From contig JANPLN010000015.1 of the NCBI GenBank assembly GCA_031426555.1, positions 61,092 through 125,091 on the forward strand: a stretch of 64,000 nucleotides of DNA. Reading direction: 5' to 3'. This document shows positions 2,065-60,265 of the stretch, piece after piece (position 1 is the first letter of the stretch; every line of letters begins with the position of its first letter). A program made the translations under genes and the position numbers. The notes under the pieces are model-generated. The model had not been told where the DNA came from and did no database searches. It saw nothing but the letters and a program-made list of their open reading frames with translations. The stretch comes from Bdellovibrionales bacterium. GTDB taxonomy: Bacteria; Bdellovibrionota; Bdellovibrionia; Bdellovibrionales; JAGQZY01.

Positions 2065-2562
2065 ATGAAAACAATCATCTTCCTCACGTTCTTTTGTTTC
2101 AGTTCTTTGTCTTTAGCAGCCCTCACTCCCACCGAAAAAGACAAAATACTTTTTATGATTTTTGAAAATCAGAGCAAAAAAATCACGACCAAAGACAAAA
2201 CAAAATGCCCTAAAGGTGCGACCAATTGGGAATGCACGAATGTCACAGCCAAAAATTTTTTGATGAATTTGTTGCGTGTGAATTTGCCACAGGGATTTAC
2301 CCAAACTACGGAAGTCCTCTGTGATGCCATAACTCCCGAGACTCAAAAGCAGATCGAAGCTAGCGAAAGCGCTCAATTTTGGGCTGTGGATTTTCAGCGC
2401 GAAGTGAAACAAAGTCTTAAAGGCCAATGGGTTTGTCGGTTAGAAGTGCTGCAGGCGGATTCGCAGCAGTGGAAACTGGGTCTCGCTTTTATCATGAATC
2501 GCGATAAGAGCCGGATTGTCTCGCGACGCTTCTCTGCCTGGCGCCTTGTTCAAAACATGTAA
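2065..2562 (+). CDS. Hypothetical secreted protein
   Basis: An ATG at 2065 gives MKTIIFLTFFCFSSLSLAA, a signal-peptide-like N-terminus. I recognise no family. Confidence 0.45.
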   Translation: MKTIIFLTFFCFSSLSLAALTPTEKDKILFMIFENQSKKITTKDKTKCPKGATNWECTNVTAKNFLMNLLRVNLPQGFTQTTEVLCDAITPETQKQIEASESAQFWAVDFQREVKQSLKGQWVCRLEVLQADSQQWKLGLAFIMNRDKSRIVSRRFSAWRLVQNM

Positions 2563-4139
2563 CTCGCGCCGAAGCTGAGTGTTTGGAAGCGCTGGCTGCC
2601 TTTGACGGATGCGGAAGGACGATTTCCTCCGCCATTGAAGTCGCTCATGAATGTTGTAAAATCCAATGCCGAGTTTAACAAAATTCTCTCGCTCCATCGG
2701 TAATCCAATAAAAAGCGAAACGATACAATTTTGCTATCTTCAGCACCGGAACTCCAGGGGCTTTCCTTGTAATTCGAATTGATATACCAATTCAATGTTG
2801 CGCCTAAGTACCAACGGTTCGCCATATCAAGCGGAGTTTTTCCGCCAAGGACCAGGCGGAGGCCCGAATACTCCGTATCGTTCAAACCGTTGTTAGAGCT
2901 GATATCTACGTCCATATCGTAACTCATATAACCCAGAGCCGCGAATATTTTAGAATCAAAGAAATCATCGCGCAAAAGGATATTGTATCCCACATCGAGA
3001 GAATACATCCCTGTGGCCACCGAAAGTTGAGTAGGAGTTCCTCCTGCAACGGGGTTGTCGATCGTGCCAGTACCTTGCGAGATTCCAACGTTTACAAACC
3101 ACTCGGGGTTGATCCACATTTCGCCATACAGAGAAATTGTTGGATAGATGGAGTTTTTCGCGGTGAGTGTGGTGTTTGCTAGAGTAAGAACTTGCTGATA
3201 ATTGGAAAGGCCAAAGCTTGCACCAATTAACCCAAAGCTCGGTGGCATTTCGGGTTTCCACTCTTGAATTTTCCCGTTCACTTGGTTATTTTCGCTTAAC
3301 AAGAGTTCTGCAGGGATATAGTCATCCTTAATCCATTTTTCTGCCAGGTACTGAACGGGTCGCGCTCCGGTGATCTTTGCATCTTTTTGGATGGAACTCG
3401 CTTCGGTTTCAGAAACGATGTCACCAAAACTTAATTTTGGATCTACTTTTACAAGGCGAATCTTTCCAATCAAAACTTTCTCGTGCTGAATAATATGTCC
3501 CAATTTTGGGTGGCGTTGAATTTCAATAATTTTACTACACGCAAGTTCTTGCCCTGGAGTTAAACCATCCACGGCCCCCAAATTGATTGTCACTCGGTTT
3601 TTGGTTCGGCTCAAAACCATTCCATCGTAGGGAATTCGGAATTTAAGCTGCTGGTACAAAGCTTCCAATTGTTTGAGAGCTTTTTCGGTGGAATCTTGAG
3701 CGAGGTCTGTGGCGGCAACGTGGGAAATCAGTCTGCCGTCCAAGGCGCTAAATAAATAAAGGGCGAGAACAAAATCCTTTGGATTCTTTCTTACTTCGGC
3801 GATCAGCAGTGCATCCGTTTTAAGAGAGCGATTGATTTTAATGGCTTTTGTTGGCGATTTTATAAGCTCAGCAGGAGTTACCAATTCTCCCGAAAACTGG
3901 GCTGGAGTGTAAAGCCACTGATGGTCTGCTTGCATAAGCTCAGTGAGTTTTAAATCTACGGGTTGCGAAAAAATACCATCGACGTTGTCAACCGTCGGGA
4001 GAAGCGAAACTCGGTGAATAGTGATCGACGCATCCACTGAATTCGAAAGCGTGACGCCTTCTTTTTTGCCGGCGAACGAAAATGAAATCAGAAGAGACAA
4101 GAAAAGCTCTATAAAAGTCTGGAACGAACTCATGACCAT
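2550..4139 (-). CDS. Putative outer-membrane beta-barrel protein with N-terminal periplasmic domain
   Basis: The start is trimmed to MVMSSFQTFIELFLSLLISFSFAG (signal-like). The C-terminal half is rich in alternating Gly/aromatic strands and ends ...FGASYMF, an OMP-type terminal Phe. Confidence 0.5.
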   Translation of the reverse strand: MVMSSFQTFIELFLSLLISFSFAGKKEGVTLSNSVDASITIHRVSLLPTVDNVDGIFSQPVDLKLTELMQADHQWLYTPAQFSGELVTPAELIKSPTKAIKINRSLKTDALLIAEVRKNPKDFVLALYLFSALDGRLISHVAATDLAQDSTEKALKQLEALYQQLKFRIPYDGMVLSRTKNRVTINLGAVDGLTPGQELACSKIIEIQRHPKLGHIIQHEKVLIGKIRLVKVDPKLSFGDIVSETEASSIQKDAKITGARPVQYLAEKWIKDDYIPAELLLSENNQVNGKIQEWKPEMPPSFGLIGASFGLSNYQQVLTLANTTLTAKNSIYPTISLYGEMWINPEWFVNVGISQGTGTIDNPVAGGTPTQLSVATGMYSLDVGYNILLRDDFFDSKIFAALGYMSYDMDVDISSNNGLNDTEYSGLRLVLGGKTPLDMANRWYLGATLNWYINSNYKESPWSSGAEDSKIVSFRFLLDYRWSERILLNSALDFTTFMSDFNGGGNRPSASVKGSQRFQTLSFGASYMF

Positions 4140-4260
4140 ATTATGCCCCAACGGTTTGGAGAGGGGTATAGAGAAGTTAAAACCCATCAAATCGTCTAGA
4201 TTCTTGCGGGGCATGAGCCCTCACTTGGGTGCACCCACGGTGTTCCGCTATACTGAAAGA

Positions 4261-4641
4261 GTGAAAATTTATATCGTTGATGATGCCTCATTTATACGAA
4301 TGATCTGTCGCTATCACCTGACAAAAGCGGGGCATGATATTGTCGGTGAGTCCCATGATGGCGAGACGGCCCTCACGGAGATCTTGGCCATCCAGCCTGA
4401 ATGTGTGTTGGTGGATCTTTCGCTCCCGAGCAAGAGCGGTGTTGAGATCATGACGGAAGTTCAGATGAAATACCCGCACATTCAATTCATCGTCGTTACA
4501 GCGCTAGACAAAGATATTTTGGCACTCACAGCGCCCGATGTGGGATATGCGGCCTATATTCGAAAGCCCTTTGAGGGTGCAGACTTGGTAAAAGCGGTAG
4601 AAACATTGCAAGCGGCGCCTGGTCGGAGGAAATATGGATGA
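4261..4641 (+). CDS. Single-domain CheY-like response regulator
   Basis: GTG start after gaaaga. The receiver residues are present: IVDD, phospho-acceptor D in VLVDLSLP, VVTA and IRKPF. The upstream part of ORF 4021..4641 overlaps the OMP gene and was discarded. Confidence 0.8.
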   Translation: MKIYIVDDASFIRMICRYHLTKAGHDIVGESHDGETALTEILAIQPECVLVDLSLPSKSGVEIMTEVQMKYPHIQFIVVTALDKDILALTAPDVGYAAYIRKPFEGADLVKAVETLQAAPGRRKYG

Positions 4642-4948
4642 GGTTTTTTTTGTTATTAAGTCGTTCTTAATTACCTGCGTGGTTGTTTTTTGCCTACAGA
4701 TGAAAGTGGGAGAACAAACTCTGGATTACAAGCTCAATGAGTTTTTACAAAAGGGTCAACTCACAAGTATTTTGCGAGATGCCGGCCAGGGAGCCACTCG
4801 CTTGACAGCGTCTGCCTATAACACCGCAAAGGAGAGTGATCTGAAGCTCCCTTTTCAAGCTATGAAACAAGCGGAACAGGCTAAAGAAGATATGCTGAAG
4901 CGACAACAGGAAGTACAGGACGAACTCGAAGAGGTCATGGCCGACTGA
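4634..4948 (+). CDS. Small N-terminally anchored protein with a charged, probably disordered tail
   Basis: The ATG overlaps the regulator stop by 8 nt and is preceded by ggagg. It has a hydrophobic N-terminus (FFVIKSFLITCVVVFCL) followed by a K/E/Q-rich tail. Confidence 0.5.
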   Translation: MDEVFFVIKSFLITCVVVFCLQMKVGEQTLDYKLNEFLQKGQLTSILRDAGQGATRLTASAYNTAKESDLKLPFQAMKQAEQAKEDMLKRQQEVQDELEEVMAD

Positions 4949-4993
4949 AAAAAGGTCGCTTCTTTAGGAAGCTCCCTGAAAAAAGATCGCTTC

Positions 4994-6673
4994 TTAAAGG
5001 TTTAAGCTCAGTTCTGATGATACGGGTCCGACCATATCAATGAAATTATTAAACGTCGAAGAGATTTGCGACGTGGTGGATGTGCCACCGCGATTGCTGA
5101 TCTTTTTAATTTCCCCAGAGGCCGCATAGGACAATTGCAGTGAGCCCACTTCGGGCCGTGCAATAGATGTGGGCTTTTGAGTCTTAGGATCGTATTCGAT
5201 GACGACTTCTTTTTTTGTATGATCAGCAAGAGCGACAATCAGACCTTGGGAGTTGTACTTGATATCCACAAACTGGCCGTCAGAGTTGCGGGCCTGTGTG
5301 AGTCGACCGGCGCCATCATATTTAAAAAGAGTCTTCTTTTTACGGAGGAGCTTCCCCGTTTTATTAAAATACTCAGTCACTGCATTTTCAATGCGGCCCT
5401 CTTTATCGTAATCGAAAGCGAGACTGTATTTATGCGTTTCGTCGGACTGCGGAATAAACAAGCTCACCGTTTTCTGTCGGAGAGTGCCGTTTGGCAAATA
5501 TTGATAAGTTGTCACGTCGGCATTTTTTCGGATGGAAATAGGTTTGCTTAAATCCTGATGGTACATGATATCCAGCGTTTGGTTGTTCTTTTCGGAAAGC
5601 ACGCGGCTTAAATATTTTTCTTTATCGGGCCGCGTTTGATACCAAAATTCGTAACGATGTTTGTAAGCTGTTTTGCCTTTGCAGCTTTTGACTGCCGTGG
5701 ACCAATAATGATCTTTTGGGTTTTCTTGTGAAAGAGTGAAGTCGTAGGTCTCGACGCAGCCGTCACGATCTTTAAATTCTCGGACCCAATCCTTCGACTC
5801 CACATAGCTTAAAGATTTAAACGTGCCATCTGGAAACTGAATTTTGGTAATGTTATGATTATCGTCGTAGGCATAAGCGTAGGCGTTTTGCCACGCATTC
5901 GTCACCGCCGTTAAGTTTTCGCCCACAAATTTATAATTCGCGGTGAGGCCGTTCATCGAGATTTGCTTTAACTTGCGCTCAGGATAGTACGTAAAAGCCA
6001 GTTTGTTTCCTTGGTTATCGGTGAGCACCGAAGGCAATCCGGCAGCGTATGAAATTCGTAAAAACGTTTTTTGTTTTTCCATTAAATAGACAAGCTTACC
6101 GCCAGCATCAAATTTTTGTAAAAGTCCTTCCGGTGTGGTGCGGACGTAGTTTGCGCCATCAAAAACGATCTTATCCAGCTCTTTGCCATTTAATAAAAAA
6201 ACAGTATTTTTAGAAGGTGAAAAGCGAATTCCCACCTCTCCGGCGTAGCGAGTGCGCAGTTTATGATCTGTTTTTAGCTGCTCTCGCAAATCGTCAAAAT
6301 ATTTTTTACTTTTTCCAGCCTCATTCTTGCGAGCATAGGTTAAAATCTTCTCAATGGTCGTGGCTATTTGTTGAACGTTAGAATTGGCCGGATAAAAGTT
6401 AATGGCTCCAGTGGAGCATTCTGTAAGAGTGAGGTTGCCTTCGATTGTAATTTCGATTTTACTCTCGATGGGCGAGCACCAGCCAAAACCAAAAATTCCG
6501 GAGAACAGAGAGCGGCTGCTATAAGTTCTTGAAATCTTCAAAGGTGAGTTTGTATCGGCAGCTACGATGTCGACCCAGTTGTCGGAGAAATTCGCATTTT
6601 TCATATCAACAAGCGCGTGAGCCTGGGGCAAAGTGAGGTATAACCAGCTGCTGATCAAGAAGAATTTTTTCAT
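4994..6673 (-). CDS. Secreted YD-repeat (RHS-type repeat) protein, last gene of the Tad operon
   Basis: Start trimmed to MKKFFLISSWLYLTLPQAHA (signal peptide). It carries an FGFGW motif and several YD repeats (YAYDDNHNITKIQFPDGT, FDYDKEGRIENAV, KYDGAGRLTQARNSDGQ). It begins 1 nt after the stop of the upstream tadB/C-like gene. Confidence 0.75.
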   Translation of the reverse strand: MKKFFLISSWLYLTLPQAHALVDMKNANFSDNWVDIVAADTNSPLKISRTYSSRSLFSGIFGFGWCSPIESKIEITIEGNLTLTECSTGAINFYPANSNVQQIATTIEKILTYARKNEAGKSKKYFDDLREQLKTDHKLRTRYAGEVGIRFSPSKNTVFLLNGKELDKIVFDGANYVRTTPEGLLQKFDAGGKLVYLMEKQKTFLRISYAAGLPSVLTDNQGNKLAFTYYPERKLKQISMNGLTANYKFVGENLTAVTNAWQNAYAYAYDDNHNITKIQFPDGTFKSLSYVESKDWVREFKDRDGCVETYDFTLSQENPKDHYWSTAVKSCKGKTAYKHRYEFWYQTRPDKEKYLSRVLSEKNNQTLDIMYHQDLSKPISIRKNADVTTYQYLPNGTLRQKTVSLFIPQSDETHKYSLAFDYDKEGRIENAVTEYFNKTGKLLRKKKTLFKYDGAGRLTQARNSDGQFVDIKYNSQGLIVALADHTKKEVVIEYDPKTQKPTSIARPEVGSLQLSYAASGEIKKISNRGGTSTTSQISSTFNNFIDMVGPVSSELSLNL

Positions 6674-6674
6674 G

Positions 6675-7562
6675 CTACACCTTGATGGTAATAATTTTTT
6701 TGATAAAGAAAGCACCAACCGCAATAAGAGAGAAAATAAGAAATAAAAATACCCATCCTAAAGTTGTCGTAAACAGCGGCATGACATAATTGGGATCCGC
6801 AAAATAAAAAATCACCAGTAGTAAAACGGGAACAAGACTGATAATAATTCCTTGCATAACACCCTGGGCGGTGAGGGCCTCGATCTTTTTTTCGATTTTT
6901 TGTCGTTCACGAATCGTGTAATTAATTGTTTGAAACGTTTCGGCCATGTTTCCGCCGGTTTCTTTTAAAATATTCACCGCTGTAACAAACATTTGCATGT
7001 CGGGGCGAGGAACTCGTTCGGCAAGTTCACTCATACATTCCTCGATGGGACGACCAATCTGGTTTTGCGACAGCACGAGACGAAATTCCTGGCTAATGGG
7101 TGCCTTTAGATTTTTTGCAACGCGATCCATGGCTTGGTTCACACTGAGCCCAGCGCGAATTCCGTTTGCGAGAATTGTTGTGGCGTCCACCATCTGATTG
7201 ACGATTGTATTGCAGCGTTTTTCATACATGGAGCGAAAAATATACTTTGGCACCGTCCAACCCAACATTGTAAATATCGATCCAAACAGCAAGCCGACAG
7301 GAATGTTGGGCCAAAAGAGCATAAAGAACAATATCCCAAGGCCAAGACTAATCGACATTAAAGAGTAGGTAAGTTTTTTATCGTCAACTTCCACAAACAT
7401 CAGCTCCATGTACTTTGCAATTTCGTCTTTTTGCCCAATACTTTTTTTGTAGAGCCAGCTTAAAATTTTATGGGACCACAAGTAGGTTAAGAGAAAAACG
7501 ATTCCGCCGACGGCGGGAAATACAAAAAACGAATTAGAAAACAATGCATTTAAAAAGTTCAT
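6675..7562 (-). CDS. Tad pilus inner-membrane platform protein (TadB/TadC, T2SS-F family)
   Basis: 295 aa. Membrane helices flank a cytoplasmic T2SSF-like core (GLSVNQAMDRVAKNL...). It overlaps the ATPase gene by 4 nt. Confidence 0.8.
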   Translation of the reverse strand: MNFLNALFSNSFFVFPAVGGIVFLLTYLWSHKILSWLYKKSIGQKDEIAKYMELMFVEVDDKKLTYSLMSISLGLGILFFMLFWPNIPVGLLFGSIFTMLGWTVPKYIFRSMYEKRCNTIVNQMVDATTILANGIRAGLSVNQAMDRVAKNLKAPISQEFRLVLSQNQIGRPIEECMSELAERVPRPDMQMFVTAVNILKETGGNMAETFQTINYTIRERQKIEKKIEALTAQGVMQGIIISLVPVLLLVIFYFADPNYVMPLFTTTLGWVFLFLIFSLIAVGAFFIKKIITIKV

Positions 7563-9760
7563 GGTTTACCGCCTCCGCTGGCTTTTTTAACCGAGTATTG
7601 CGGGCCAGCAGGTTTCGAAGTATCCACGGGAGCGGGCGCATTGGCCGCTTCGTTGGAGAAGAGATCCTTTGGAATACCAATCCCGCGCTCCTTCAGCTCT
7701 TGAATAAACTTTGGAATAAGTCCTTTAGACAAAAATTGACCAATAATTTTTCTATTTTTATCAAATCCGACCTCTTTGAACTCAAAAACTTCCTGTAGAG
7801 TGACCGTATCGCCTTGAATACCCTGAACCTCGGCGATGCTCATGATCTTACGGCTTCCATCGGAAAGTCGCGAAATTTGCACGATTAAATCCACGGCGCC
7901 GGCAATTTGTTCGCGAATGGCGCGCACAGGGAGATCCATCCCGGCCATCAAGCAAAGGGTTTCGAGTCGGCCAATGGCCTCGCGTGGGTTGTTGGAGTGG
8001 ACCGTTGTCATCGAGCCATCATGACCCGTGCTCATGGCGGCAAGCATGTCGAGAGCGGCACCGTCACGGCACTCACCCACGATGATACGGTCGGGACGCA
8101 TACGCAGAGTATTTTTCACAAGGTCGCGAATGGTGATGGCTCCTTCGCCCTCCATATTTGCAGGGCGAGTTTCAAGCCTTACAACGTGAGTCTGGCGAAG
8201 TTGCAGTTCTGCAGCATCTTCAACTGTGATAATTCGTTCGGTTGAAGGAATAAAAGAAGACATACAATTCAGGAGAGTGGTTTTACCAGACCCTGTACCG
8301 CCTGAGATAATAATGTTACAGCCGTTTTCCACAGCGAGTTTTAAAAAATCCATCATCGGACGGCTGATAGAATTGTAATGAACGTACTGGTCAACGCCAA
8401 AAGCATCTTTTTTAAATTTACGAATTGTCAAAGAAGGGCCGTCAATCGAGAGCGGCTCAATGATGGCATTCACACGACTTCCATCAGCTAAGCGCGCATC
8501 TACATAAGGAGTTTTTTCATCGATACGTCGCCCGAGGGGAGTCACAATCCGCTCGATCACGTTGCGCAGCTGAATATTCGAGGTGAAGTGGGTTTTGCTG
8601 AGTTGAAGCCGGCCGCCTTTTTCGATAAATATTTTATCAAACCCGTTGACCATAATTTCACTGACATCGACTTGTGAGAGAAGATCTTCGAGCGGGCCGA
8701 GTCCTAAAGCTTCATCAAGAGTTTCTTTGATGATCTGTTTGCGGTCTGCCGGTGACACTCCTTGGGCCTCTTGATCGAGAATCTTCGAAATGGCAACCTT
8801 CACATCGCCTTCGAGCTTGCGTCGTTTTTCGGCGTCTTTGCTGGCCTTGGTGATGTCGTCGTTTTTAAGGTTCATTTCCTTAATCAAACGAGTATGAATT
8901 GTAATTTTAAGATGAGTTCGCGGATCAATAGAGTTTTTAGTGGTTGTATCTGAAGATTCTTGCTTTTCAAAAGTGAGAATATTATTTCGCGTGAGAGTTT
9001 TTAATTTTTGTAAAACGCCGCCGGTGAGTTTGCGGACGATTTCGGTGTAACTATTGGCGAGCGGCGATTGGGGAGAAAGTAGCAGAAAGGGAGTGGCACG
9101 CTTGAGGGCATTGGCCGTTGTCACGTCGTCTTGCGGGAGCACTCCAAGCATGGGTCGTTTAAAAGATTGTTCCAGTTGGCTTGGTGCCAGCCCCACGTTG
9201 CTGGCTTTGTTCAGTACAATTTGAATCATCTCATTTGGCAAGGTAGCGGCCCGAAGGTCGTTGATCACTCGGAGTGTTTGATTCACGGTGAGCACTTCTG
9301 GCGTGGTTACAACGATGGCCGTGGTGCAGGCCTCAAGCAAGCGCATTTGTAATTCATCCAGATCATTTCCAAAATCAAGAACGATAAATTTGTAAAAGTG
9401 CGACAGCTGAGCAATTTGTTTAAGGGCAATAGGCGGAGACACAGTGAATGTTTGTCCTGGGCCCTTGACGGCGCCGAGATAGTGAATGGGAGCTGTGGAG
9501 TGTGACGAAACAACAGTGAGTAAATTTTTTGTATTGATGCTGCCGGTAAAGTTACAAACTTCTTCTAAGGTTTTCGGGTCCAACAAGCCGGTGATAAAAT
9601 TCTGATCACCGCAGGATTTTTGATCAGCATCGATAAGCAAAGTTGAGGTCTTAAGTTCTTGCCCCAGTTTAATAGCAAGGTTGGCAGCAAAAACACTTTT
9701 GCCAACGCCGCCTTTTCCACCGACGACGCCTATAATAAAACAGTTTGTATTGAATGACAT
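7559..9760 (-). CDS. Fused TadZ/CpaE-like (MinD/ParA) domain plus CpaF/TadA secretion ATPase
   Basis: The N-terminus has the deviant Walker [12 protein letters not shown]. The C-terminal half has the T2SS-E motifs [27 protein letters not shown] and [12 protein letters not shown]. Total length is 733 aa. Confidence 0.85.
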
Positions 9761-9867
9761 TGAGCTAGATCCCTCCTCGTATATTATCGGTAAAACCGCC
9801 GATATATTTGAGGAAAGTTACTGCTTTTAGGGGATCCTAGACCCGACGATCGACCAGCCCTATGGGC

Positions 9868-11343
9868 CTACTCGTTCAAGCGGAACTTCTCTTTGACCTT
9901 ATCGACGCCCGTGCTGGCTGACGACTTGATAATAGGTGTTACAAACACTACAAACTGCGACTGGTTTTTTTGAAACGCTTTAGATGTGTAAAAAGAAAAC
10001 AGAGCGTTTTGCAAACCATCTGGGATTTTATTGTAATCCATGGTCTGCGAGTTCCCAATGAGACCAGCCACGGCGGCACTTTCCCCGCTGCGCACGGCCA
10101 CCTCGGTGGTCACGGAGTTGTTGGATATGATAGGACCAAGAGCGGTCAGGGAAACCAAACTGCCAATGTTAAAAGTCATTTTCATGTTGATCAGATCCGA
10201 ACGCGGACTATCAATGCTTGGCGTGATATCAGACACCAAGGAGACTTCCGCCGATCCCGGAATCGAAGCTCCCAATTGGTTTTGTGTCACATAGGGAATT
10301 GTGGTTTTTTGCGACACACGCCCCGAAACATCTTGTTTTGTAATGACACTGGTAGTTTTTAAAATACGTGCGTGACCATGGGCCTTGGCCCAATTCAATT
10401 TAGGTAAAAGGTTGGAAATGGTCCCGGTGATGCTTGAAATTACACCGCTGGGCTGTCGCGAATCCACCGTAAAAGACATACTCGTGTTGTCGCCAATAAT
10501 CGGTGTCCATTGAAAGCGCGAACTGTTGGAGTAGTCTTTACTGAGTTCCACATAGTGTAAAACCAACTGAATCAGTTTTTTCGGCTGCGGATCTGGTGGC
10601 GGGCGAGCGACAATTAAATTTACAACAGGATCTTCTTTACGTTTTTTAATGTCTCCTTGGTTTTCAGCTTCGCCGAAGACAGGTGGGGGCAAATACGTGC
10701 GTGCAATGAGCTCGGCGTTGTCTCTGTCGAACGCTGCGTTTACTTCGCCGGTAAGAATGTACTTGCCGTTACGAGCTCGCACTTGGACGTCGGGGTTGTT
10801 GATTTCTCGCTCGATAATTTCGGCAATTTTTTGCTGTGCAAAGGGACTGACTTCCACCAGCGAAGCGGCATCGGCTCCATACTGTTTAAGCACAGCCACA
10901 ATTCGATTGAGATCTTCGGGATGAACAACCTTTCCATCCACTACAACTTTTTCATTCACAATCTTAATCGAAATTCCCTCGATCTCGCTGAGGAGGGCGC
11001 GAATTTCTCGAACAATGCGCGTGAGCTTGGTGTCGCGAACTTCAATGCGATACTCAAAAACCTTTGTTCCCTTCTTATCGTGAATGGAGAGCGTGGCAAT
11101 CCCTGCCTTTACTGGAGTAAAGCGCAGCTTTTGATATTCGCGAGCGACGGCAAGTTTTGTAACGCCTTTCCAGTCGCCGCCAAAGTCTCCGCCCAGAGGG
11201 AGCTTGGCGAGAGTTTCTTCGTGTTCCACACCTTGATAAAGTATTAGGTATTTTTCACCCGGCTTTTCCTCGTTTTGCGCAAGCGCCAACGCTGGAAAGG
11301 CGAATAAAAATATTAAAAATACACTCTTCATATCAAACCTCAT
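9868..11343 (-). CDS. Tad pilus secretin (CpaC/RcpA family)
   Basis: It has a signal peptide and N-terminal repeated beta-alpha modules. The C-terminal secretin core ends in ...SQFVVFVTPIIKSS. The start could instead be the internal MKSVF (11331). Confidence 0.8.
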   Translation of the reverse strand: MRFDMKSVFLIFLFAFPALALAQNEEKPGEKYLILYQGVEHEETLAKLPLGGDFGGDWKGVTKLAVAREYQKLRFTPVKAGIATLSIHDKKGTKVFEYRIEVRDTKLTRIVREIRALLSEIEGISIKIVNEKVVVDGKVVHPEDLNRIVAVLKQYGADAASLVEVSPFAQQKIAEIIEREINNPDVQVRARNGKYILTGEVNAAFDRDNAELIARTYLPPPVFGEAENQGDIKKRKEDPVVNLIVARPPPDPQPKKLIQLVLHYVELSKDYSNSSRFQWTPIIGDNTSMSFTVDSRQPSGVISSITGTISNLLPKLNWAKAHGHARILKTTSVITKQDVSGRVSQKTTIPYVTQNQLGASIPGSAEVSLVSDITPSIDSPRSDLINMKMTFNIGSLVSLTALGPIISNNSVTTEVAVRSGESAAVAGLIGNSQTMDYNKIPDGLQNALFSFYTSKAFQKNQSQFVVFVTPIIKSSASTGVDKVKEKFRLNE

Positions 11344-12206
11344 AGTTCCTCGTAAGCGCTTGGTTTTTTGATGGGACCCGGTTTAACAGGCGCCGGGAGG
11401 GCTGGTTTTGGTTCTTCCGCAGGCTGTCTTGGGGCTCTCACTTTGCCCATGACATCGTCGGCATCAACAACTTTTAACGGATTAATATAGCGATCATTTG
11501 GATTTCTGAGAGTGGCGTACAACGAGCCGGGGCTGCTGTTGATGATGTGAATTAACAGCTGCACTTCTGCCGGCGAAATTTCTACCGTCACCGATGTAAA
11601 GTTATAAACTTTGCGCAGGTTATTGATAAGGAAAGAATCCTTACTGCCTTCTTCGAGTTGCGCTGGAATTGTGTCCACAATGTTTTGGCCCACAGCCAAA
11701 ATAGGAACGTCCTGCATGATGGTGCGAACTTCTTTCTTTTTATCAATACCTTGGCCAGAATCCACCGCAGTGATCAAATCAATGCGATCACCAGGTTTTA
11801 CTAGGCGCGCGATCATCTGAATATCGTTGGCAGGAATGGCAAAGGCCCGTTTTCCAGGACTGACTTGCATCGAGAGACCCGTGTCTTTTCCCGGAGGTAA
11901 AAGCTTCGTATTTAAAATCTGTTCACCTTTTTTAATTGGTGCTGCGGCCATTTGTCCAATCGCTTGTTCTGGGTTTTGCAGAGCTTTGGGTTGAACAAAA
12001 TCTTCTGGCGCTTCGGACACCTCAATCATGGATTCGTCGATGGGTTCCATTTCGGTGATATCTTTTGAGGCGATCACAACTTGTTTTTTTGCGCCGTACT
12101 TTTTGTGAACAGACGCCTTTTGTTCCTGAGACCAACTGTAAAGTAGGAAAACTGCAAAGACCGCGCTTCCAATAGATATCCAGAGGGTTTTCGTATCGTT
12201 ATTCAT
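11340..12206 (-). CDS. Flp pilus assembly protein CpaB/RcpC
   Basis: ATG at 12206 is preceded by ggag. It has an N-terminal TM helix, then a SAF-like segment (VVIASKDITEMEPIDESMIEV) and an RcpC-like C-terminus. It overlaps the secretin gene by 4 nt. Confidence 0.75.
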   Translation of the reverse strand: MNNDTKTLWISIGSAVFAVFLLYSWSQEQKASVHKKYGAKKQVVIASKDITEMEPIDESMIEVSEAPEDFVQPKALQNPEQAIGQMAAAPIKKGEQILNTKLLPPGKDTGLSMQVSPGKRAFAIPANDIQMIARLVKPGDRIDLITAVDSGQGIDKKKEVRTIMQDVPILAVGQNIVDTIPAQLEEGSKDSFLINNLRKVYNFTSVTVEISPAEVQLLIHIINSSPGSLYATLRNPNDRYINPLKVVDADDVMGKVRAPRQPAEEPKPALPAPVKPGPIKKPSAYEEL

Positions 12207-12207
12207 G

Positions 12208-12690
12208 CTAATCTCCACACTGTTCTGTTAAACAAATTCCGTACTGTGTTTTAATCCAAACTGGATCCAAGGAAATGCCTTCATTTCTTTGTCCGTCTCT
12301 GACTTCTGCACCCACTCGAGAATGTTCGTTGGCGGTTCGACCCTGAGGATCTTCTTCGATAAACATGGCGATCCTACGCTCGGTGGGGTATTGGTTTTTG
12401 TCGCCGCCGCGTTGGGCGATTTCGTTATTGGTTCCGTGCAAACGATTTTCGTAAGCGTGATAACTTAAGGTCAATGGCTTATTGCCTCGGAACCACCAAA
12501 GGTGCGAACGATGTCTAAAGATCTCAAAGGTGTAGGTGCGCGAAGCAATTGATTGCAGAATTGCCGTGTGGGTAACTCCAAAAAAACCAAGGGTGTAACG
12601 AGACAGAACTATAAAAATAAACAGAATAATCACTGATTCCAAAACAGCCAGGCCACGTTCGTTTTTGAGGTTGGGTGCGGTGTTCTTCAT
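12208..12690 (-). CDS. TadE-like pseudopilin
   Basis: Start trimmed to MKNTAPNLKNERGLAVLESVIILFIFIVL, which matches the TadE-type N-terminal motif (G..E followed by a hydrophobic helix). Confidence 0.6.
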   Translation of the reverse strand: MKNTAPNLKNERGLAVLESVIILFIFIVLSRYTLGFFGVTHTAILQSIASRTYTFEIFRHRSHLWWFRGNKPLTLSYHAYENRLHGTNNEIAQRGGDKNQYPTERRIAMFIEEDPQGRTANEHSRVGAEVRDGQRNEGISLDPVWIKTQYGICLTEQCGD

Positions 12691-12691
12691 G

Positions 12692-13309
12692 CTAACACCC
12701 GTCGTCCATAGTTGGTAAATACGCATCATCTCGCACAAAGCCCAAGGCAAAGCCCGCTTTCAGGGTTTGAATCTGTTTAAAGCGGTCTTTCGTAAAATCC
12801 TCGCATTCCTTTTCTGTAGGCTCACGCATCAGATACGAAGAAACCTGAGTGCCAAGATCATCGTCGGTGGTGCTACCTAACAAAGGGATGTTCATACTTA
12901 ACACTTTTGCAACTAGGCTGGTTCGCGCACCAACGAAGGTATCGGAGTCTTCTCCGGCGGTTTGCGAAAACTCGGCGCTAAAATCCTTAAGTTCAACATC
13001 GCTAATCTCAAACCAATCGTTGCGAAAGAAATTTCCTAGAACCGAATTTTGATCGCGTAAAAGCTTTTGAAATTTTTCTTTGCCAACGCGACGTTGCTCG
13101 TCTTCGTTTTTGTGAGCGGCAAAAAAAGATCTAGCGCTGGCGAAAGTGGCATATTGAGTGATTTCGACAACTACAAAAGTGATTGCAAACCGAAAGAGAA
13201 TAGCAGAAAACGTAAACATCATGATGGACGCAAAGATAAAATCAAGGGTCAGCATCCCTTTTTGATTTTTTAAAATGTTTCGTGCCGGTTGTTTAGTCAT
13301 CTTCATCAT
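12692..13309 (-). CDS. TadE/TadG-like pseudopilin
   Basis: Start trimmed to MMKMTKQPARNILKNQKGMLTLDFIFASIMMFTF, a basic leader followed by a hydrophobic helix. It sits within the pseudopilin run. Confidence 0.55.
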   Translation of the reverse strand: MMKMTKQPARNILKNQKGMLTLDFIFASIMMFTFSAILFRFAITFVVVEITQYATFASARSFFAAHKNEDEQRRVGKEKFQKLLRDQNSVLGNFFRNDWFEISDVELKDFSAEFSQTAGEDSDTFVGARTSLVAKVLSMNIPLLGSTTDDDLGTQVSSYLMREPTEKECEDFTKDRFKQIQTLKAGFALGFVRDDAYLPTMDDGC

Positions 13310-13313
13310 ATTC

Positions 13314-13562
13314 CTATATAGGTTCCGGACTCGCACGGCGTCCATACACATTGGGGTGAATATCGCTGCCGGTGTTTCCTTCGGACCACACACCATTTTG
13401 AATCATGCCCTGAAGGTAAGACCACGGACCACTGACCATCTTGCGTAAAAAATCCTGATCCTTGATGGCTCCCGTTCCCACTTTTGCAAATGCGAGAGCA
13501 ATCACGAGGAGCAAAACAGCTTCAATCGTCATTTGTCCTCGTTGGTTGCGAAAGCGTCTCAT
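13314..13562 (-). CDS. Small TadE-like pseudopilin (82 aa)
   Basis: Only the C-terminal 82 codons of the 306-aa ORF are kept (MRRFRNQRGQMTIEAVLLLVIALAF). Its ATG forms an ATGA overlap with the peptidase stop. Confidence 0.55.
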   Translation of the reverse strand: MRRFRNQRGQMTIEAVLLLVIALAFAKVGTGAIKDQDFLRKMVSGPWSYLQGMIQNGVWSEGNTGSDIHPNVYGRRASPEPI

Positions 13563-14047
13563 ACGACCCCTCCCACCGACAAAAAGCTGAGCCATCCTAA
13601 AAGAATAGCCACCGTGTAGGGAATTTTTTGTTGAGAGGCTTGTGGATTTCGTAAAATCAACGATTGAGCAAACGTCGTTAGCTGACCAGCAAACATCAGC
13701 TTTAAGAGTCCGATGAGCAGCCCCCAAAAGAGAGAGTAGGCGAGCACGGTTGTGCTGATGAGTGGCGATGTGAGCAAGCAAAACACCGCCAGCAATTTTA
13801 AATCGCCAGCCCCAAGTGCGCCAAAAAAGAAAAGCGGAGTGAGTGCAATAAAGAAAGCTACGCTTCCTAAAAGACTGCTCAACACGGGCAAGAGAGCGGT
13901 CTTTGTAGCACCTAAAAATAGAACACTCAAAAAAGCGCTGGAAACAAATAGCCAGTTTGGAAAACGTCCCGATTTGACGTCGAATCCGCAAGCTATGAGC
14001 AGCAGGAGTGTTGGTGCTAAAAGGGAGAGCTCGTGAAAAACCATCAA
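13559..14047 (-). CDS. Prepilin peptidase, A24 family (CpaA/TadV type)
   Basis: 162 aa and polytopic. Both catalytic Asp contexts are present: FDVKSGRFPNW and GALGAGDLKLL. Confidence 0.8.
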   Translation of the reverse strand: MMVFHELSLLAPTLLLLIACGFDVKSGRFPNWLFVSSAFLSVLFLGATKTALLPVLSSLLGSVAFFIALTPLFFFGALGAGDLKLLAVFCLLTSPLISTTVLAYSLFWGLLIGLLKLMFAGQLTTFAQSLILRNPQASQQKIPYTVAILLGWLSFLSVGGVV

Positions 14048-14256
14048 GGCACTCCTGTGGGTGGACCAGCGGGGGGAACTTGCCAGTTGTTGGGTGGATA
14101 GTTAAAAGCTTGCCCTGTGGAAAGTTGCTGTTCGACGCGCGCACCGAGGCGAGGAGCGGAGTTTCTAAAAACTTCCATCGGGCCTTTTTCGCCGGTAAAT
14201 GCGCCCATAAGTACGAATACAAAAAGTCCAACAAGTAAAACGTATTCGACGATCAC
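14044..14256 (-). CDS. Small Flp-like membrane protein lacking a recognisable leader
   Basis: A GTG at 14256 lies 5 nt after GGAGG and gives MIVEYVLLVGLFVFVLMGAF..., an EY-hydrophobic core like mature Flp. No G/xxxxEY cleavage site precedes it, and the C-terminus is Pro-rich. Confidence 0.4.
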   Translation of the reverse strand: MIVEYVLLVGLFVFVLMGAFTGEKGPMEVFRNSAPRLGARVEQQLSTGQAFNYPPNNWQVPPAGPPTGVP

Positions 14257-14346
14257 GAGAACCTCCAAGGTTTACCTAGTAAACATCGGAATTCTCAAAT
14301 AAAAACATAAGTACAGTTTGGTATATTAGACGGTAGAGGATAGAAA

Positions 14347-14392
14347 CCAAGAGACCTTCGTCCTGTAGAAGAGATCTACAAAAGGCCTCTTG
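14347..14392 (-). terminator. Compound hairpin downstream of flp (possible attenuator)
   Basis: The outer stem caagagacc/ggcctcttg has one mismatch and encloses the inner hairpin tgtaga-agaga-tctaca. It lies 25 nt after the flp stop and has only a weak U-tract. Confidence 0.35.
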
Positions 14393-14415
14393 TTTATGAG
14401 CGTTAGATGGGGCTG

Positions 14416-14595
14416 TTAGTTAGCACTAAAGCCTTGGATATCGTTTCCGAGGTCGTCAACTTTACCGCGAATGATCCCCATAATCTTATCTTTAAAAAGC
14501 ATGGCAATTCCTACCACGATCACAAGCATAAGAATGTACTCGGTTGCACCCTGCGCTGATTCATCTGTCCAAAGAGTTTTAATACTGTTTTTCAT
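14416..14595 (-). CDS. flp: Flp family type IVb pilin (59 aa), absent from the supplied ORF track
   Basis: My own translation of the minus strand gives MKNSIKTLWTDESAQGATEYILMLVIVVGIAMLFKDKIMGIIRGKVDDLGNDIQGFSAN. It has the Flp motif G/ATEY followed by a hydrophobic helix, and a GGAGG RBS 6 nt upstream. Confidence 0.85.
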   Translation of the reverse strand: MKNSIKTLWTDESAQGATEYILMLVIVVGIAMLFKDKIMGIIRGKVDDLGNDIQGFSAN

Positions 14596-16903: not shown

Positions 16904-19346
<2,443 letters not shown>

Positions 19347-37722: not shown

Positions 37723-39360
37723 ATGACTTCCAACTTGCTGTGGCTTGTGGCGCTGGGGCCCGTTGCACTGCTTAGCGCATGTTTAATCCCAACTACGGTA
37801 GCTGACCTATATCCTCGGCCGTTAAATAGATTTGCACAAATATTGTCTTTCTTGTCTTTCGTGGGCGCTCTTGCGACTGTTTGCTTAGTAACACTTCACT
37901 CGTCGCTTTACACACCGCTTGCGGGAAGTCGGGGAATCGGTTTTTCGCTTTATCTCGATGCAATTAGCGCCACGATGTTCGTGTTGGTTTCATTCATTGG
38001 AATGGTCGTCGTCGCTTTTAGTCAGAATTACTTGGCTGGTGATCCAGGCCACGGACGATTTATGAAAATGATTTCAATTGCCTTAGGATCAGTTTTACTG
38101 CTCATCGTCGCAGGCAATTTTTTTCAGTTTCTTGCAGCTTGGGTTTCTTCAAGTCTTGCTCTTCATCAACTCCTCACATTTTACTCCGAGCGCCCATCGG
38201 CAATACTCGCGGCAAGAAAGAAATGGGTGGTCAGTCGCTTAGGAGATTTATGCATTCTGAGTGCGATTGCGTTGCTTTATTCCCAGCTGGGAAGTCTTGA
38301 CTACGCTATCATCTTTAAAGCAGCCCACGAAATGCAAACCCCAAGTCTCATCTCCTCGCCATTTTTTTTAGCAGCCCCACTCCTTGCGCTAGCAGCCCTG
38401 TTAAAGTCAGCGCAGTTTCCAATTCACGGATGGTTGCTTGAGGTGATGGAAACACCAACTCCGGTTTCTGCTTTGCTGCATGCGGGAATTATTAATGCCG
38501 GAGGGTTTTTGATTCTTCGCTTCTCGTCCTTGATAAGTCTCTCGCCATTCGCCATGAACATGCTACTCATTGTTGGAGCGGTGACCGCCATCTTTGGCTC
38601 GCTAGTAATGCTTACCCAAACTTCTGTTAAAGTTTCTTTAGCCTACTCCACGGTCGCGCAAATGGGATTTATGATGCTTGAGTTCGGCCTTGGAATGTTT
38701 TCGGCGGCGATGCTGCACATTATCGCTCACTCACTTTACAAGGCTTATGCTTTTTTATCGTCGGGTGAAACTGTAGCGCGAGCACCGTCAGCAAAAAATC
38801 ATCCAAAGTCAGTCTCTTTAAAGGGGGCACTTCTTACGTCCTCACTTGCAGTGTTTACGGCTTTATTCACGGTCACCATGGTCGGCGTCGCCTTCGATTC
38901 AACGTTATTCAGCAAACCAGGAAGTGCGACTCTCAGCTATATTTTCGTTTTGGGTTTGGTCACGCTGACTTCAACTCTGTTTGATGGACGTCTAGGCTCG
39001 ATGCTCCTCGTGCGTTTTGTAGCTCGCCTCGTAGGCATCACAATTCTATTTTTTAGTGTACAGTATTTTTCTGAGGCTCTATTTGGCGGCCATCTTGCTC
39101 GCGAGTCCAATCAGTTCAACCTAATTGATATTTTCGTGCGCGTTTGCATTATATTCGGTTTTAGTGCGATCACTATTCTTCAGAGCGTTCTCTCGCGCAC
39201 ACACGGAAGAGAGCTTTGGATCAAACTTTACGTTCACCTTGCAAACGGATTCTACATAAACACCATTGGGAATAGTTTTGCGATTCGGTTTTGGCCAAGT
39301 GCCGCACCGAGATCCACCGTGCCGGAGTATATACCCTATAAAAGACGAGGAGATTCATGA
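37723..39360 (+). CDS. dabB: DabB-like NuoL/MnhA-family proton-conducting membrane subunit
   Basis: 545 aa and polytopic, with a complex I subunit-5-like core (WLLEVMETPTPVSALLHAGIINAGGFL). It forms an ATGA overlap with the DUF2309 gene. Confidence 0.8.
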   Translation: MTSNLLWLVALGPVALLSACLIPTTVADLYPRPLNRFAQILSFLSFVGALATVCLVTLHSSLYTPLAGSRGIGFSLYLDAISATMFVLVSFIGMVVVAFSQNYLAGDPGHGRFMKMISIALGSVLLLIVAGNFFQFLAAWVSSSLALHQLLTFYSERPSAILAARKKWVVSRLGDLCILSAIALLYSQLGSLDYAIIFKAAHEMQTPSLISSPFFLAAPLLALAALLKSAQFPIHGWLLEVMETPTPVSALLHAGIINAGGFLILRFSSLISLSPFAMNMLLIVGAVTAIFGSLVMLTQTSVKVSLAYSTVAQMGFMMLEFGLGMFSAAMLHIIAHSLYKAYAFLSSGETVARAPSAKNHPKSVSLKGALLTSSLAVFTALFTVTMVGVAFDSTLFSKPGSATLSYIFVLGLVTLTSTLFDGRLGSMLLVRFVARLVGITILFFSVQYFSEALFGGHLARESNQFNLIDIFVRVCIIFGFSAITILQSVLSRTHGRELWIKLYVHLANGFYINTIGNSFAIRFWPSAAPRSTVPEYIPYKRRGDS

Positions 39361-41762
39361 TTGCCGAGGTCAAAATATCACAAGCCATTCAGCGTGCGTG
39401 CAATAAAATAGCACCCCTTTGGTCGTTAAAAAATTTTGTTGCTGTGAATCCATTCGTTGGTTTTAGCGATATCTCGTTTTATCAAACTTGCGCCCAGTTT
39501 AGGCGTGTGAACCGCGCCGATGTGCTAATGCCACGAGGGTTTTATAAGGATGCCTTGAGCTCCGGTTTCATCCAAGATCAGGATTTGGAATCGGCCCTCT
39601 CATTGGTCTCAAACTTAGCAGGGGCTTCCAGATCTATAGAGTCCTTAAAAGAAAGTCTTAGTAAAAGTGCAGTTCCACAGAAACCGAAAGCCGTGGTTGC
39701 CACCATCTCCGAAGTCTTAGATAAGTTGTCACATGGGAATCGTCAGTTATCGAGGACCGCTTTTATGGTCGACGAAATCGCAAAATTTTGTGCGGGCTAC
39801 TACGACGAGGGGCAAGCGCTTTTATCCTTTCCCTTAAAAGAACAATCCCTTTACTCGGCGTGGCTCACTTTGCAAAAATTTGACAGAAATCCCGAGTTCA
39901 TGGGAATCAGCCACTATCGCGAGTCGATTGCCAGGGCTCCAACGACGCCGACCGAAGCCATCGAGTTTGTGGTCGAAGCCCTTGGCATTCCTCCGCGTGC
40001 TGTAGAGGATTACCTCTATCGTGCCCTTTTCGATATCAACGGATGGGCCTCCTATGTTCGACACCTAGTTTGGAAGAGTGAACTCAATGGCGAAAAAAAC
40101 GATTCTCTCGTACAACTTTTAGCGATTCGTGTAGTTTGGGGATATGCGCTTTTTCTCGAGCGCACCGACGAAACTTTTAAGCGAGAGTGGAAGCTCGCTA
40201 TGCAGGAGGCGACTCAGCTTCCACTGGATCACGATCTCAGTGGTGATAAAGATTTGGCCATCGATATCGTTCTTCAAGAAGCTTACGAATTGGCTTATCA
40301 GCGGCGCCTTTTTAAATCGATAAACGAGGTCGCTGGCCCACAGATTCCATCAGCAGCACAGCGCCCAGCCCTGCAAGCGGCATTTTGCATCGACGTGCGA
40401 TCCGAGGTATTTCGCCGAGCGCTGGAGAAGGTGTGCGCAGGTGCAGAAACCATTGGCTTTGCAGGATTCTTCGGAATTCCTCTGGAGTTTACCCCCAACG
40501 GTGCCGAACAGGTGAGGGACCAGTGTCCTGTTCTTCTAAAACCTGCATACAAAGCCACCGAATCAGGAAACTTTCGAAAACGAGTTTCCGACTCGTGGAG
40601 GCGATTCAAACTATCCGCTGTTTCTTGCTTTGCCTATGTTGAGACGTTTGGTGTGTTTGCAGTTTTTGATCTTATCAGTAAAACGTTTTGTCTTTCCAAG
40701 ACCGCGCCACCCTCGGTTGGAAAAATTCATATTCAAAGAGTCAGCGAGTATGACAATCATTTTTCTGACACCCAAAAGATTCAACTTGCGAAGACGATTC
40801 TTCACGCCATGTCGCTAACAAAAGATTTTGCGCCTGTTGTATTGTTGGTGGGGCACGGAAGTTCCACTACAAATAACCCCCACGCCTCGGGATTAAACTG
40901 TGGAGCCTGTGGTGGTCACTCAGGCGAAGTGAATGCTGTTGTCCTGGCAAATATTCTCAACGAACCATCGGTGAGGGAAGGGCTTCGCCTGGAAGGCCAA
41001 ATTATTCCCAACGACACTTGGTTTTTAGGTGGCCTGCATAACACCACCACCGACGAAGTCGCCGTTTTAGGAATTGAGCAGGCTCCGAGTGCTTCTAAGG
41101 ATAAAATCAAAGAGTTGCAAGGCTGGCTCGCCCAAGCGGCGGGATTGAGTCGCAACGAGCGTCTACCTGCATTGGTTCCTCATAAGAAAAACGGCGCCAA
41201 GGCTGAAGTGTTTGCGCGCAGTCTGGACTGGTCACAGGTACGACCGGAATGGGGATTGGCAGGTAACACAGCTTTTATCGTGGGACCTCGCTCGCTCACT
41301 AAAAAAATCGATCTTGGCGGTCGCGCCTTTCTACATAGTTACGACTGGAAATCAGATGAAGATTTTTCTGTGCTAGAGCTCATAATGACCGCACCCATGG
41401 TTGTCGCCAGCTGGATTAATCTTCAATACTTTGCGTCGACCACAAATAATCAGGTATTTGGTGCAGGCAATAAAGTTCTGCATAATGTGACTGGTACGAT
41501 TGGGGTCATCGAAGGAAATAGTGGTGACTTGCGTGTAGGATTGCCGTGGCAATCTGTGCATAATGGATGTCAATTTGTGCATCAGCCCCTACGCCTTAAC
41601 GTGATCATTACAGCGCCAACGGAGGCCATTAGTCGCGTTATCGAAAAACATCCCAGCGTGCAAAATTTAGTGGATAACAAATGGATTCATCTTTACGCCA
41701 CGACTGATGGGGGAAAGATATCAGAACGTTATCTGGGAAATCTTAAGTGGAGTGCACTTTGA
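39357..41762 (+). CDS. dabA: DabA-like DUF2309 protein (putative carbonic-anhydrase-like subunit of a DAB inorganic-carbon pump)
   Basis: 801 aa. It carries the conserved metal-ligand contexts FCIDVRSE and LVGHGSSTTNNPHASGLNCGACGG. Confidence 0.85.
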   Translation: MIAEVKISQAIQRACNKIAPLWSLKNFVAVNPFVGFSDISFYQTCAQFRRVNRADVLMPRGFYKDALSSGFIQDQDLESALSLVSNLAGASRSIESLKESLSKSAVPQKPKAVVATISEVLDKLSHGNRQLSRTAFMVDEIAKFCAGYYDEGQALLSFPLKEQSLYSAWLTLQKFDRNPEFMGISHYRESIARAPTTPTEAIEFVVEALGIPPRAVEDYLYRALFDINGWASYVRHLVWKSELNGEKNDSLVQLLAIRVVWGYALFLERTDETFKREWKLAMQEATQLPLDHDLSGDKDLAIDIVLQEAYELAYQRRLFKSINEVAGPQIPSAAQRPALQAAFCIDVRSEVFRRALEKVCAGAETIGFAGFFGIPLEFTPNGAEQVRDQCPVLLKPAYKATESGNFRKRVSDSWRRFKLSAVSCFAYVETFGVFAVFDLISKTFCLSKTAPPSVGKIHIQRVSEYDNHFSDTQKIQLAKTILHAMSLTKDFAPVVLLVGHGSSTTNNPHASGLNCGACGGHSGEVNAVVLANILNEPSVREGLRLEGQIIPNDTWFLGGLHNTTTDEVAVLGIEQAPSASKDKIKELQGWLAQAAGLSRNERLPALVPHKKNGAKAEVFARSLDWSQVRPEWGLAGNTAFIVGPRSLTKKIDLGGRAFLHSYDWKSDEDFSVLELIMTAPMVVASWINLQYFASTTNNQVFGAGNKVLHNVTGTIGVIEGNSGDLRVGLPWQSVHNGCQFVHQPLRLNVIITAPTEAISRVIEKHPSVQNLVDNKWIHLYATTDGGKISERYLGNLKWSAL

Positions 41763-59884: not shown

Positions 59885-60003
59885 ACAACTATAGGATTTC
59901 TATAGTCAGTTATATATTTCATATAAATTTCATATAATCCGCAGATGAGTATTATCAACCTCGTGAACGATGGTGCGTCTAAAAGGATTACCTGAAGTAA
60001 ACC

Positions 60004-60015
60004 TAGGTATACCTA
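60004..60015. promoter_or_regulatory. Perfect 12-bp palindrome taggtataccta upstream of the alpA-like gene
   Basis: It lies 56 nt before the 60071 start. It shares the TAGGTA half-site with the repeats upstream of int. Confidence 0.35.
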
Positions 60016-60070
60016 AGGTAATACGTAAGATCGTTCTAGTGAACAGTAATGCATCCACTAGGAGGATAAA

Positions 60071-60265
60071 ATGGAAAATCAGAATACAAACGAAAAACGT
60101 AACCTACGGGTTGATGAATTCTCGAAAATTTACGGGATTTGTCGTACCAAAACTTATCAAGAAATGAAGTCAGGAAGACTCAAATTCTTCAAATGTGGGA
60201 AAACTACGCTCATTGCAAAAGAAGCCGCAGAAGACTGGCAAGCCCTACTGTCCAAGGGGGCTTAG
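60071..60265 (+). CDS. AlpA/excisionase-type small HTH protein
   Basis: 64 aa. The sequence LRVDEFSKIYGICRTKTYQEMKSGRLKFFKCGKTTLI has the MerR/AlpA-like HTH pattern. An RBS aggagg lies upstream. Confidence 0.7.
   Translation: MENQNTNEKRNLRVDEFSKIYGICRTKTYQEMKSGRLKFFKCGKTTLIAKEAAEDWQALLSKGA

Follow-up and report, generated by a model that had tools for sequence, protein, structure and literature searches.

The closest described relatives of the locus considered here lie at one end of the hit/Tad block of Bdellovibrio bacteriovorus. In strain HD100, Bd0102 and Bd0121, which are called "chemotaxis factors", flank the block, and two small hypothetical genes, BD_RS00505 and Bd0103, lie downstream of bd0108 (Oyedara et al., PMC5941755). 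In strain 109J, EP01_RS12325 corresponds to Bd0102 and is annotated as a response regulator/CheY; exactly two locus tags lie between Bd0102 and Bd0108, and wapA/Bd0109, TadB, and TadA follow (PMC6561027). The bd0108 gene is co-transcribed with bd0109 and the tad genes, and the region called "downstream of bd0108" is that between bd0103 and bd0108, so that bd0108 follows bd0109 on the same strand (PMC3818213). Here, we examine the corresponding region in a 64-kb stretch of DNA from a Bdellovibrionales bacterium (contig JANPLN010000015.1, hereafter the window), in which the gene of a CheY-like response regulator and a small open reading frame (ORF) of 104 codons run toward the gene of a Bd0109-like secreted YD/RHS-repeat protein. 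Regulator and small ORF are a real two-gene unit with coupled translation, and throughout the order both the overlap and the place beside the hit/Tad locus are kept.

The regulator gene and the small ORF share an 8-nucleotide start/stop overlap, ATGGATGA, in which the ATG at 4634 opens the small ORF and the TGA at 4639-4641 closes the regulator gene. A GGAGG Shine-Dalgarno sequence stands 4 nucleotides before this ATG, and purine-rich equivalents precede the small-ORF start in related loci. Of 30 orthologous loci, 22 have the overlap in the same ATGnnTGA form, and the remainder have 4-nucleotide (ATGA) or 1-nucleotide (TAATG) overlaps or gaps of 3-21 nucleotides. From the overlap and the ribosome-binding site, an earlier reading of the window made from its letters (the sequence-only reading) had proposed that the two genes are probably co-translated, and the recurrence of the same overlap bears this out. 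The small ORF is a real gene under strong purifying selection, with a ratio of nonsynonymous to synonymous substitution rates (dN/dS) of 0.04-0.05 against two close relatives (dS 0.5-1.3). The pair is also its own transcription unit, converging on the Tad/YD operon and terminating against it: the small ORF and the YD gene are convergent with a stop-to-stop gap of 45 nucleotides, and two terminator-like hairpins fall in the gap region.

The gene order was followed in 38 related loci fetched through the YD protein, onto which the window proteins were mapped; comparisons of the pair drew on 30 loci sampled through the YD protein and on three contigs sampled independently through the small protein. 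CpaF, TadB, and YD keep their order in all 38 loci. In the 30 loci the order reads CpaF > TadB > YD > (Bd0108-like) > (second small secreted ORF) > < small protein < CheY, and the three contigs reached through the small protein have the same order. Outside the clade to which the window belongs (the window, loci L001-L006, and the P0018 contig), the YD gene is followed by a gene for an 82-118 residue protein with a Cys pair, a secreted ORF of 46-90 residues, and then the convergent member of the 104-residue family with its CheY. Within the window clade both small secreted genes are missing at the locus, and the YD and small-ORF stop codons lie 1-62 nucleotides apart; the Bd0108-like gene and the second secreted gene have apparently been lost there. 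B. exovorus has a second YD and Bd0108 pair (A11Q_2207/2208) elsewhere in its genome, and epibiotic predators as well as several species of Bdellovibrio are reported to have lost Bd0108 (PMC11870529, PMC5941755).

This neighbourhood could be a matter of synteny only, the pair serving as a motility or chemotaxis output (for example to flagellar or gliding motors) that has no functional tie to hit/Tad. Such an account fits the convergence of the pair with a Tad operon with which it is not co-transcribed, the conservation of groEL and a 554-residue outer-membrane-protein gene beside the pair as well, and the insertion of other genes, in L024, L027, and L033, into the interval that separates the pair from YD. 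It sits poorly with an adjacency that has survived across lineages whose YD proteins are 34-40% identical, and that has done so despite local insertions and losses. Nor do che or motor genes stand alongside the pair in any locus examined. We regard this account as unlikely, and return below to two further points in its favour.

The sequence-only reading had gone further and placed the small ORF where HD100 has bd0108, which would make its product the Bd0108 of this lineage, a disordered partner of Bd0109. Bd0108 is a protein of 101 residues whose signal peptide is removed ahead of D24 and which contains a CXXC motif (PMC3818213, PMC4267844). The small protein resembles it in size (about 100 residues), in its hydrophobic N-terminus, and in a tail that is modelled at low confidence; its gene does adjoin the Bd0109-like YD gene, of which the pair is a conserved neighbour. 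The orientation is the opposite of that of bd0108, since the small ORF lies on the strand opposite to the YD gene. Furthermore, in about 25 related loci a secreted Cys-pair protein of 82-118 residues starts 10-25 nucleotides after the YD stop on the same strand, with C-x(1-4)-C in its mature part, and the same loci also hold the CheY/small-ORF pair further on. Because both are present in the same loci, the Bd0108-like gene and the small ORF are separate genes, and the conserved partner of the latter is the upstream CheY gene, not the YD gene. The window protein has no CXXC and, judged by inspection, no cleavable Sec signal peptide, being hydrophobic from residue 3 without a basic n-region; a plausible signal peptidase I site is also lacking, because the sequence L-Q-x-K-[VI]-G that follows the helix puts K at -3.

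Alignment, which had been suggested as a check of the Bd0108 assignment, found no similarity: hhalign of the small-protein family against the Bd0108-like family returned a probability of 1.1%, and the best blastp E-value of the small protein against 23 positional Bd0108-like proteins, a set that does not include HD100 Bd0108 itself, was 0.56. Identity with Bd0108 was rejected on strand, the missing CXXC and cleavable signal, the lack of both profile and pairwise similarity, and co-occurrence, and we give it hardly any credence; the small protein is, by all these measures, unrelated to Bd0108. The small ORF is nevertheless conserved, as the earlier assignment would have it, and no Bd0108-like ORF or second YD gene was found elsewhere in the 64-kb window, where tblastn gave chance-level matches. 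One cluster of such matches, at 17650-17850, is the CPVCG zinc finger of a DNA ligase and is not Bd0108-like.

The second small secreted ORF lies between the Bd0108-like and Bd0103-like genes in about 20 loci, on the YD strand. Its product of 46-90 residues has a signal peptide, a single conserved Cys, and a C-terminus that is basic, and the ORF matches the re-annotated BD_RS00505. Capeness et al. described a 261-nucleotide "small RNA" (sRNA; HD100 96455-96716) at this position that is up-regulated in bd0108 mutants; as it is placed where the second secreted ORF sits, it may be a small-protein mRNA. A match to the published sRNA primer in one metagenome contig was due to chance and falls inside an M16-peptidase-like gene. 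In locus L040, an IS200-type Y1 transposase gene lies among the small secreted genes between YD and the pair, which is intact.

The regulator matches Pfam Response_reg over the whole profile (positions 1-111 of 111; E = 1e-19, 71.2 bits against a cut-off of 30.2). Among solved structures it is closest to chemotaxis CheY proteins (E = 3e-19), which is the first of the two points that favour synteny only; in NCBIfam, it reaches no CheY equivalog cut-off. The catalytic set D7, D8, D52, T80, and K102 is present. Among 30 orthologues that are 22-97% identical, D7, D8, D52, G60, and K102 never vary; T or S always occupies position 80, and 29 of the proteins have Y or F at position 99. These residues indicate a functional phospho-acceptor with a CheY-type switch residue, and the regulator holds every residue needed for phosphotransfer and for a CheY-type aromatic switch. 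No histidine kinase, CheA, CheW, methyl-accepting chemotaxis protein (MCP), or other che gene occurs within the 64-kb window, so that on this scale the regulator is not encoded with cheA, cheW, or an MCP gene as a chemotaxis CheY proper would be.

The GTG at 4261 is the conserved start of the regulator. A longer product from an ATG at 4213 was ruled out, as relatives have insertions and deletions in this interval and one has no ATG. A promoter-like element, TTGGGT and TATACT separated by an 18-nucleotide spacer, ends 6 nucleotides 5′ of the GTG; both boxes are conserved, and the flanking bases are variable and carry insertions and deletions. A consensus scan missed the element because its -35 box matches at only three of six positions. 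No conserved Shine-Dalgarno sequence precedes the GTG, and together with the spacing of the element this suggests that the regulator mRNA may be leaderless or nearly so. The element is also about 10 nucleotides from the start, at 4214, of the divergent 554-residue gene.

A direct search returned 18 homologues of the small protein (82-112 residues, 41-96% identity), and a profile search of a 50%-identity library gave 677 representatives with E <= 1e-3, of which 372 reach E <= 1e-10. The 150 top-ranking ones are all 73-192 residues long, are matched from residue 1, and have no fused domains. Profile searches of Pfam, NCBIfam, and the PDB found no relative; the best PDB E-value (0.39, a potassium channel) is noise. 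The signature of the family lies in the first 31 or so residues and consists of F6, K/R9, T14, and Q22 followed by K-[VI]-G-x-x-T-x-[ED], to which the window protein conforms. A weaker G-[AG] motif occurs near residue 53, past which length and sequence vary. The most conserved part of the protein is its N-terminal membrane helix with the juxtamembrane segment. As the sequence-only reading had noted, the N-terminus is hydrophobic (residues 3-23) and K, E, and Q abound in the tail (11 K+R, 15 D+E). The tail, which that reading took to be probably disordered, is modelled by AlphaFold at low confidence, with helices at residues 30-40, 43-67, and 74-103 in addition to the helix at 2-22, for which the predicted local distance difference test (pLDDT) score is about 80 against a mean of 62.8 for the whole model. 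The only cysteines, C15 and C20, are both in the membrane helix. A conserved acidic residue 3 was considered as a CheY-binding motif and rejected, since the overlapping TGA fixes codon 3 as GAN.

Counted over 29 sequences, K and R come to 5 ahead of the helix, compared with 54 in the 15 residues that follow. With basic residues scarce before the helix and common after it, an orientation with the N-terminus out and the C-terminus in is favoured. The opposite orientation would allow a transmembrane relay, in which the small protein is a type II signal-anchor whose periplasmic tail senses the YD protein (Bd0109) or the Tad pilus and signals to CheY. A periplasmic tail is possible because K/R9 lies inside the helix and because Bd0103 has been treated as secretory (PMC10469934). 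In the published model of the hit locus, a membrane protein yet to be identified is postulated downstream of Bd0109 (PMC3818213), and a relay would make the small protein this "unknown membrane protein" of 2013. Conservation of the position beside the YD/Tad genes in 33 loci is in keeping with a relay, as is the greater conservation of the membrane helix, whose polar K9, T14, and Q22 suggest helix-helix contacts within the membrane. However, a relay would leave only 2-4 cytoplasmic residues for contact with the regulator, the positive-inside count points to a tail in the cytoplasm, and the tail varies widely in sequence and length (in proteins of 85-161 residues). The pair is, moreover, unchanged in the clade that lost Bd0108. 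We therefore consider a relay quite unlikely.

The loci fetched for comparison show the seven-gene order of the published maps, and on this basis the pair are inferred positional orthologues of Bd0102 (the CheY) and Bd0103. Bd0102 has a published phenotype: by Tn-seq, insertions in this gene lower fitness in predation 10- to 400-fold. Transposon mutants of Bd0102 had predation fitness values (W) of 0.08 and 0.14 in a full screen and of 0.002-0.01 in a mini screen with V. cholerae and E. coli prey, planktonic and in biofilm; the attachment score by Tn-FACSeq was 0.11 (PMC6561027). In monoculture a Bd0102 mutant still kills prey (1.8% survival), and its rounding score is not reduced (PMC6561027). 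In the same data set, tadB and tadA mutants had attachment scores of 0.90 and 1.34 (PMC6561027). Reduced attachment with killing retained is what a defect in prey encounter would produce, which is the second point that favours synteny only, and the unlikeness to tad mutants tells against a relay from the pilus.

On balance, we think it somewhat probable that the pair, as counterparts of Bd0102 and Bd0103, is a stoichiometric, membrane-associated output module for phospho-signalling. Coupled translation would supply the two proteins in fixed proportion, and they would act as a complex at the inner membrane. The small protein would sit in the membrane with the short acidic N-terminus facing out; the rest of it, helical and charged, would lie in the cytoplasm and there anchor the regulator or present it at the membrane. 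A kinase whose gene lies elsewhere would phosphorylate D52 and so change the association between regulator and small protein, and the changed association would in turn tune the envelope machinery used in prey attachment.

Several points weigh against this module. Binding between the regulator and the small protein is something that we infer, and the functional link of the pair to the hit/Tad locus is positional. Conservation extends to groEL and the outer-membrane-protein gene beside the pair, so that simple synteny may account for the neighbourhood, and the window supplies neither a histidine kinase nor a che gene. A cytoplasmic tail has to be squared with the conserved K/R9 within the hydrophobic stretch and with the grouping of Bd0103 with secreted proteins, and the structure model is weak. 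The acidic residue 3 gives no functional clue, and it is less conserved in proteins whose genes do not overlap, where the position is often S or N. The correspondence to Bd0102 and Bd0103 was drawn from position and not from sequence alignment: three homologue searches returned metagenomic relatives and no HD100 protein. The Bd0102 phenotype itself differs from that of tadB and tadA, with reduced attachment as opposed to normal scores, and a transposon in Bd0102 may be polar on Bd0103.

A bolder proposal is that the pair is the missing inward signalling arm of hit/Tad, by which the state of the YD protein or the pilus in the periplasm would be passed to CheY and hence to the decision between attack and growth, or prey attachment. 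If so, the inward arm would be a module conserved across Bdellovibrionales and kept even where Bd0108 has been lost; we hold this to be distinctly improbable.

The surroundings of the pair are as follows (Table 1). The regulator, small ORF, and YD gene lie where the sequence-only reading had put them. The YD protein has 559 residues, compared with 550 in Bd0109, with YD/RHS repeats and a signal peptide (MKKFF...AHA), and its gene comes directly after tadB and ends the Tad operon, as befits a Bd0109-like gene. The Flp pilin gene forms the far end of this minus-strand operon, which also encodes a prepilin peptidase, TadE-like proteins, CpaB, a secretin, CpaF with a ParA/MinD fusion, and TadB. 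In the CpaF/TadA ATPase, an N-terminal CbiA/ParA domain (residues 9-245) is fused to the T2SSE domain; this fusion of ParA/MinD-type and T2SSE domains looks like TadZ-CpaF and is conserved in related loci. On the other side of the regulator are groES/groEL and the 554-residue outer-membrane-like gene. The latter is divergent from the regulator, keeps the same position in most related loci at 29-94% identity, and has no family name; its product gives a weak match, under the cut-off of Pfam, to an outer-membrane beta-barrel.

Other features of the window are further removed. Past the Tad operon, on its Flp pilin side, lies a 371-residue ORF with a C-terminal HNH nuclease motif; the published description of the HD100 locus has no such ORF and gives the MCP gene Bd0121 as the limit of the block. 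Three consecutive genes, for a tyrosine integrase, a Prim-Pol/PriCT primase, and a DUF3987 protein, probably belong to an integrated mobile element. A DabA/DabB-type inorganic carbon transporter pair (DabA match E = 1e-258; the partner is a Proton_antipo_M subunit) lies beside a LysR regulator gene and is unexpected in a predatory bacterium.

Table 1. Coordinates of the features discussed; positions refer to the window unless another locus is named.
Feature	Position	Strand	Basis or remark
CheY-like response regulator, 126 residues, GTG start	4261-4641	+	Pfam PF00072
Small membrane protein, 104 residues, unnamed family	4634-4948	+	ORF, homologues, dN/dS
Start/stop overlap	4634-4641	+	8 nucleotides; read from sequence
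Shine-Dalgarno GGAGG for small ORF	4625-4629	+	within last codons of regulator gene
Promoter-like element	4225-4254	+	5-locus alignment of window clade
Conserved N-terminal hydrophobic helix, residues 3-23	4640-4702	+	family alignments, AlphaFold, hydropathy
Terminator-like hairpins, two, overlapping	4942-4972		plus strand 4942-4958; minus strand 4972-4958, then T-run
Bd0109-like secreted YD/RHS-repeat protein, 559 residues, last gene of Tad operon	4994-6673	-	RHS_repeat, DUF6531, TIGR01643
Tad (Flp) pilus operon upstream of YD gene	6675-14595	-	domain matches
CpaF/TadA ATPase	7559-9760	-	CbiA/ParA and T2SSE domains
Flp pilin gene	14419-14595	-	far end of Tad operon
554-residue protein	2550-4214	-	weak beta-barrel match
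ORF with HNH motif, 371 residues	15639-16754	+	
DabA/DabB-type transporter pair	39357-41762 (+), with 37723-39360		
Integrase, primase, and DUF3987 genes	58631-62710	+	
Second small secreted ORF, other loci	L008 12175-12405; L009 10611-10835; L011 12063-12281; L014 7438-7617; L017 12121-12351		
IS200-type Y1 transposase gene, other locus	L040 6152-6706		

The correction of a tempting misassignment, that of the small ORF beside the YD gene as Bd0108, changes what is of interest here. The claim behind the original interest was a Bd0108 counterpart under phospho-relay control, and its Bd0108 part is unsupported; a regulator beside the hit/Tad locus was already visible in published annotation. The window genes are counterparts of annotated, uncharacterised B. 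bacteriovorus genes, and the regulator is an ordinary receiver. What remains is the order-wide coupling of an orphan CheY to a nameless family of small membrane proteins, its fixed position beside the hit/Tad locus, and the existing predation-fitness and attachment phenotype of Bd0102. Two flanking genes that had been ignored become a testable candidate pair.

Compared with known systems, the pair is closest to Bd0102/Bd0103: both have, at the 3′ end of the bd0108-bd0109-tad block, a CheY-annotated regulator gene with a small hypothetical gene after it. It differs in that the window has no equivalents of the two small secreted genes, Bd0108 and BD_RS00505, between the pair and YD; the regulators of Bdellovibrio-like loci are, moreover, only 25-30% identical to that of the window. 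Bd0108 and the small protein have in common their length of about 100 residues, a place beside the YD gene, a hydrophobic N-terminus, and a restriction to Bdellovibrio-like organisms, whereas Bd0108 is co-transcribed with bd0109 and has a cleaved signal peptide and CXXC, and the small protein is convergently encoded and has neither. The chemotaxis CheY proteins of Thermotoga (1tmy) and E. coli (2chy) are, like the window regulator, receiver-only proteins of about 120 residues with an acidic pocket, a phospho-acceptor Asp, Thr/Ser, and Lys, and an aromatic switch residue three positions before the Lys. Unlike them, the window regulator is encoded outside a che operon, and its gene ends within the first codons of one for a membrane protein.

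PilG and PilH of the Pil-Chp system of type IV pili are also single-domain receivers tied to a pilus system, and probably act via protein-protein contact and not through transcription. The tie of the window regulator to the Tad pilus is one of genetic position; PilG and PilH, unlike it, belong to a complete chemosensory operon, and we know of no co-translated membrane partner for either. MgrB, SafA, and MzrA, which to our knowledge act on sensor kinases, are not translationally coupled to a response regulator, and have no sequence relationship to the family described here, are, like the small protein, short single-pass inner-membrane proteins linked to phospho-signalling.

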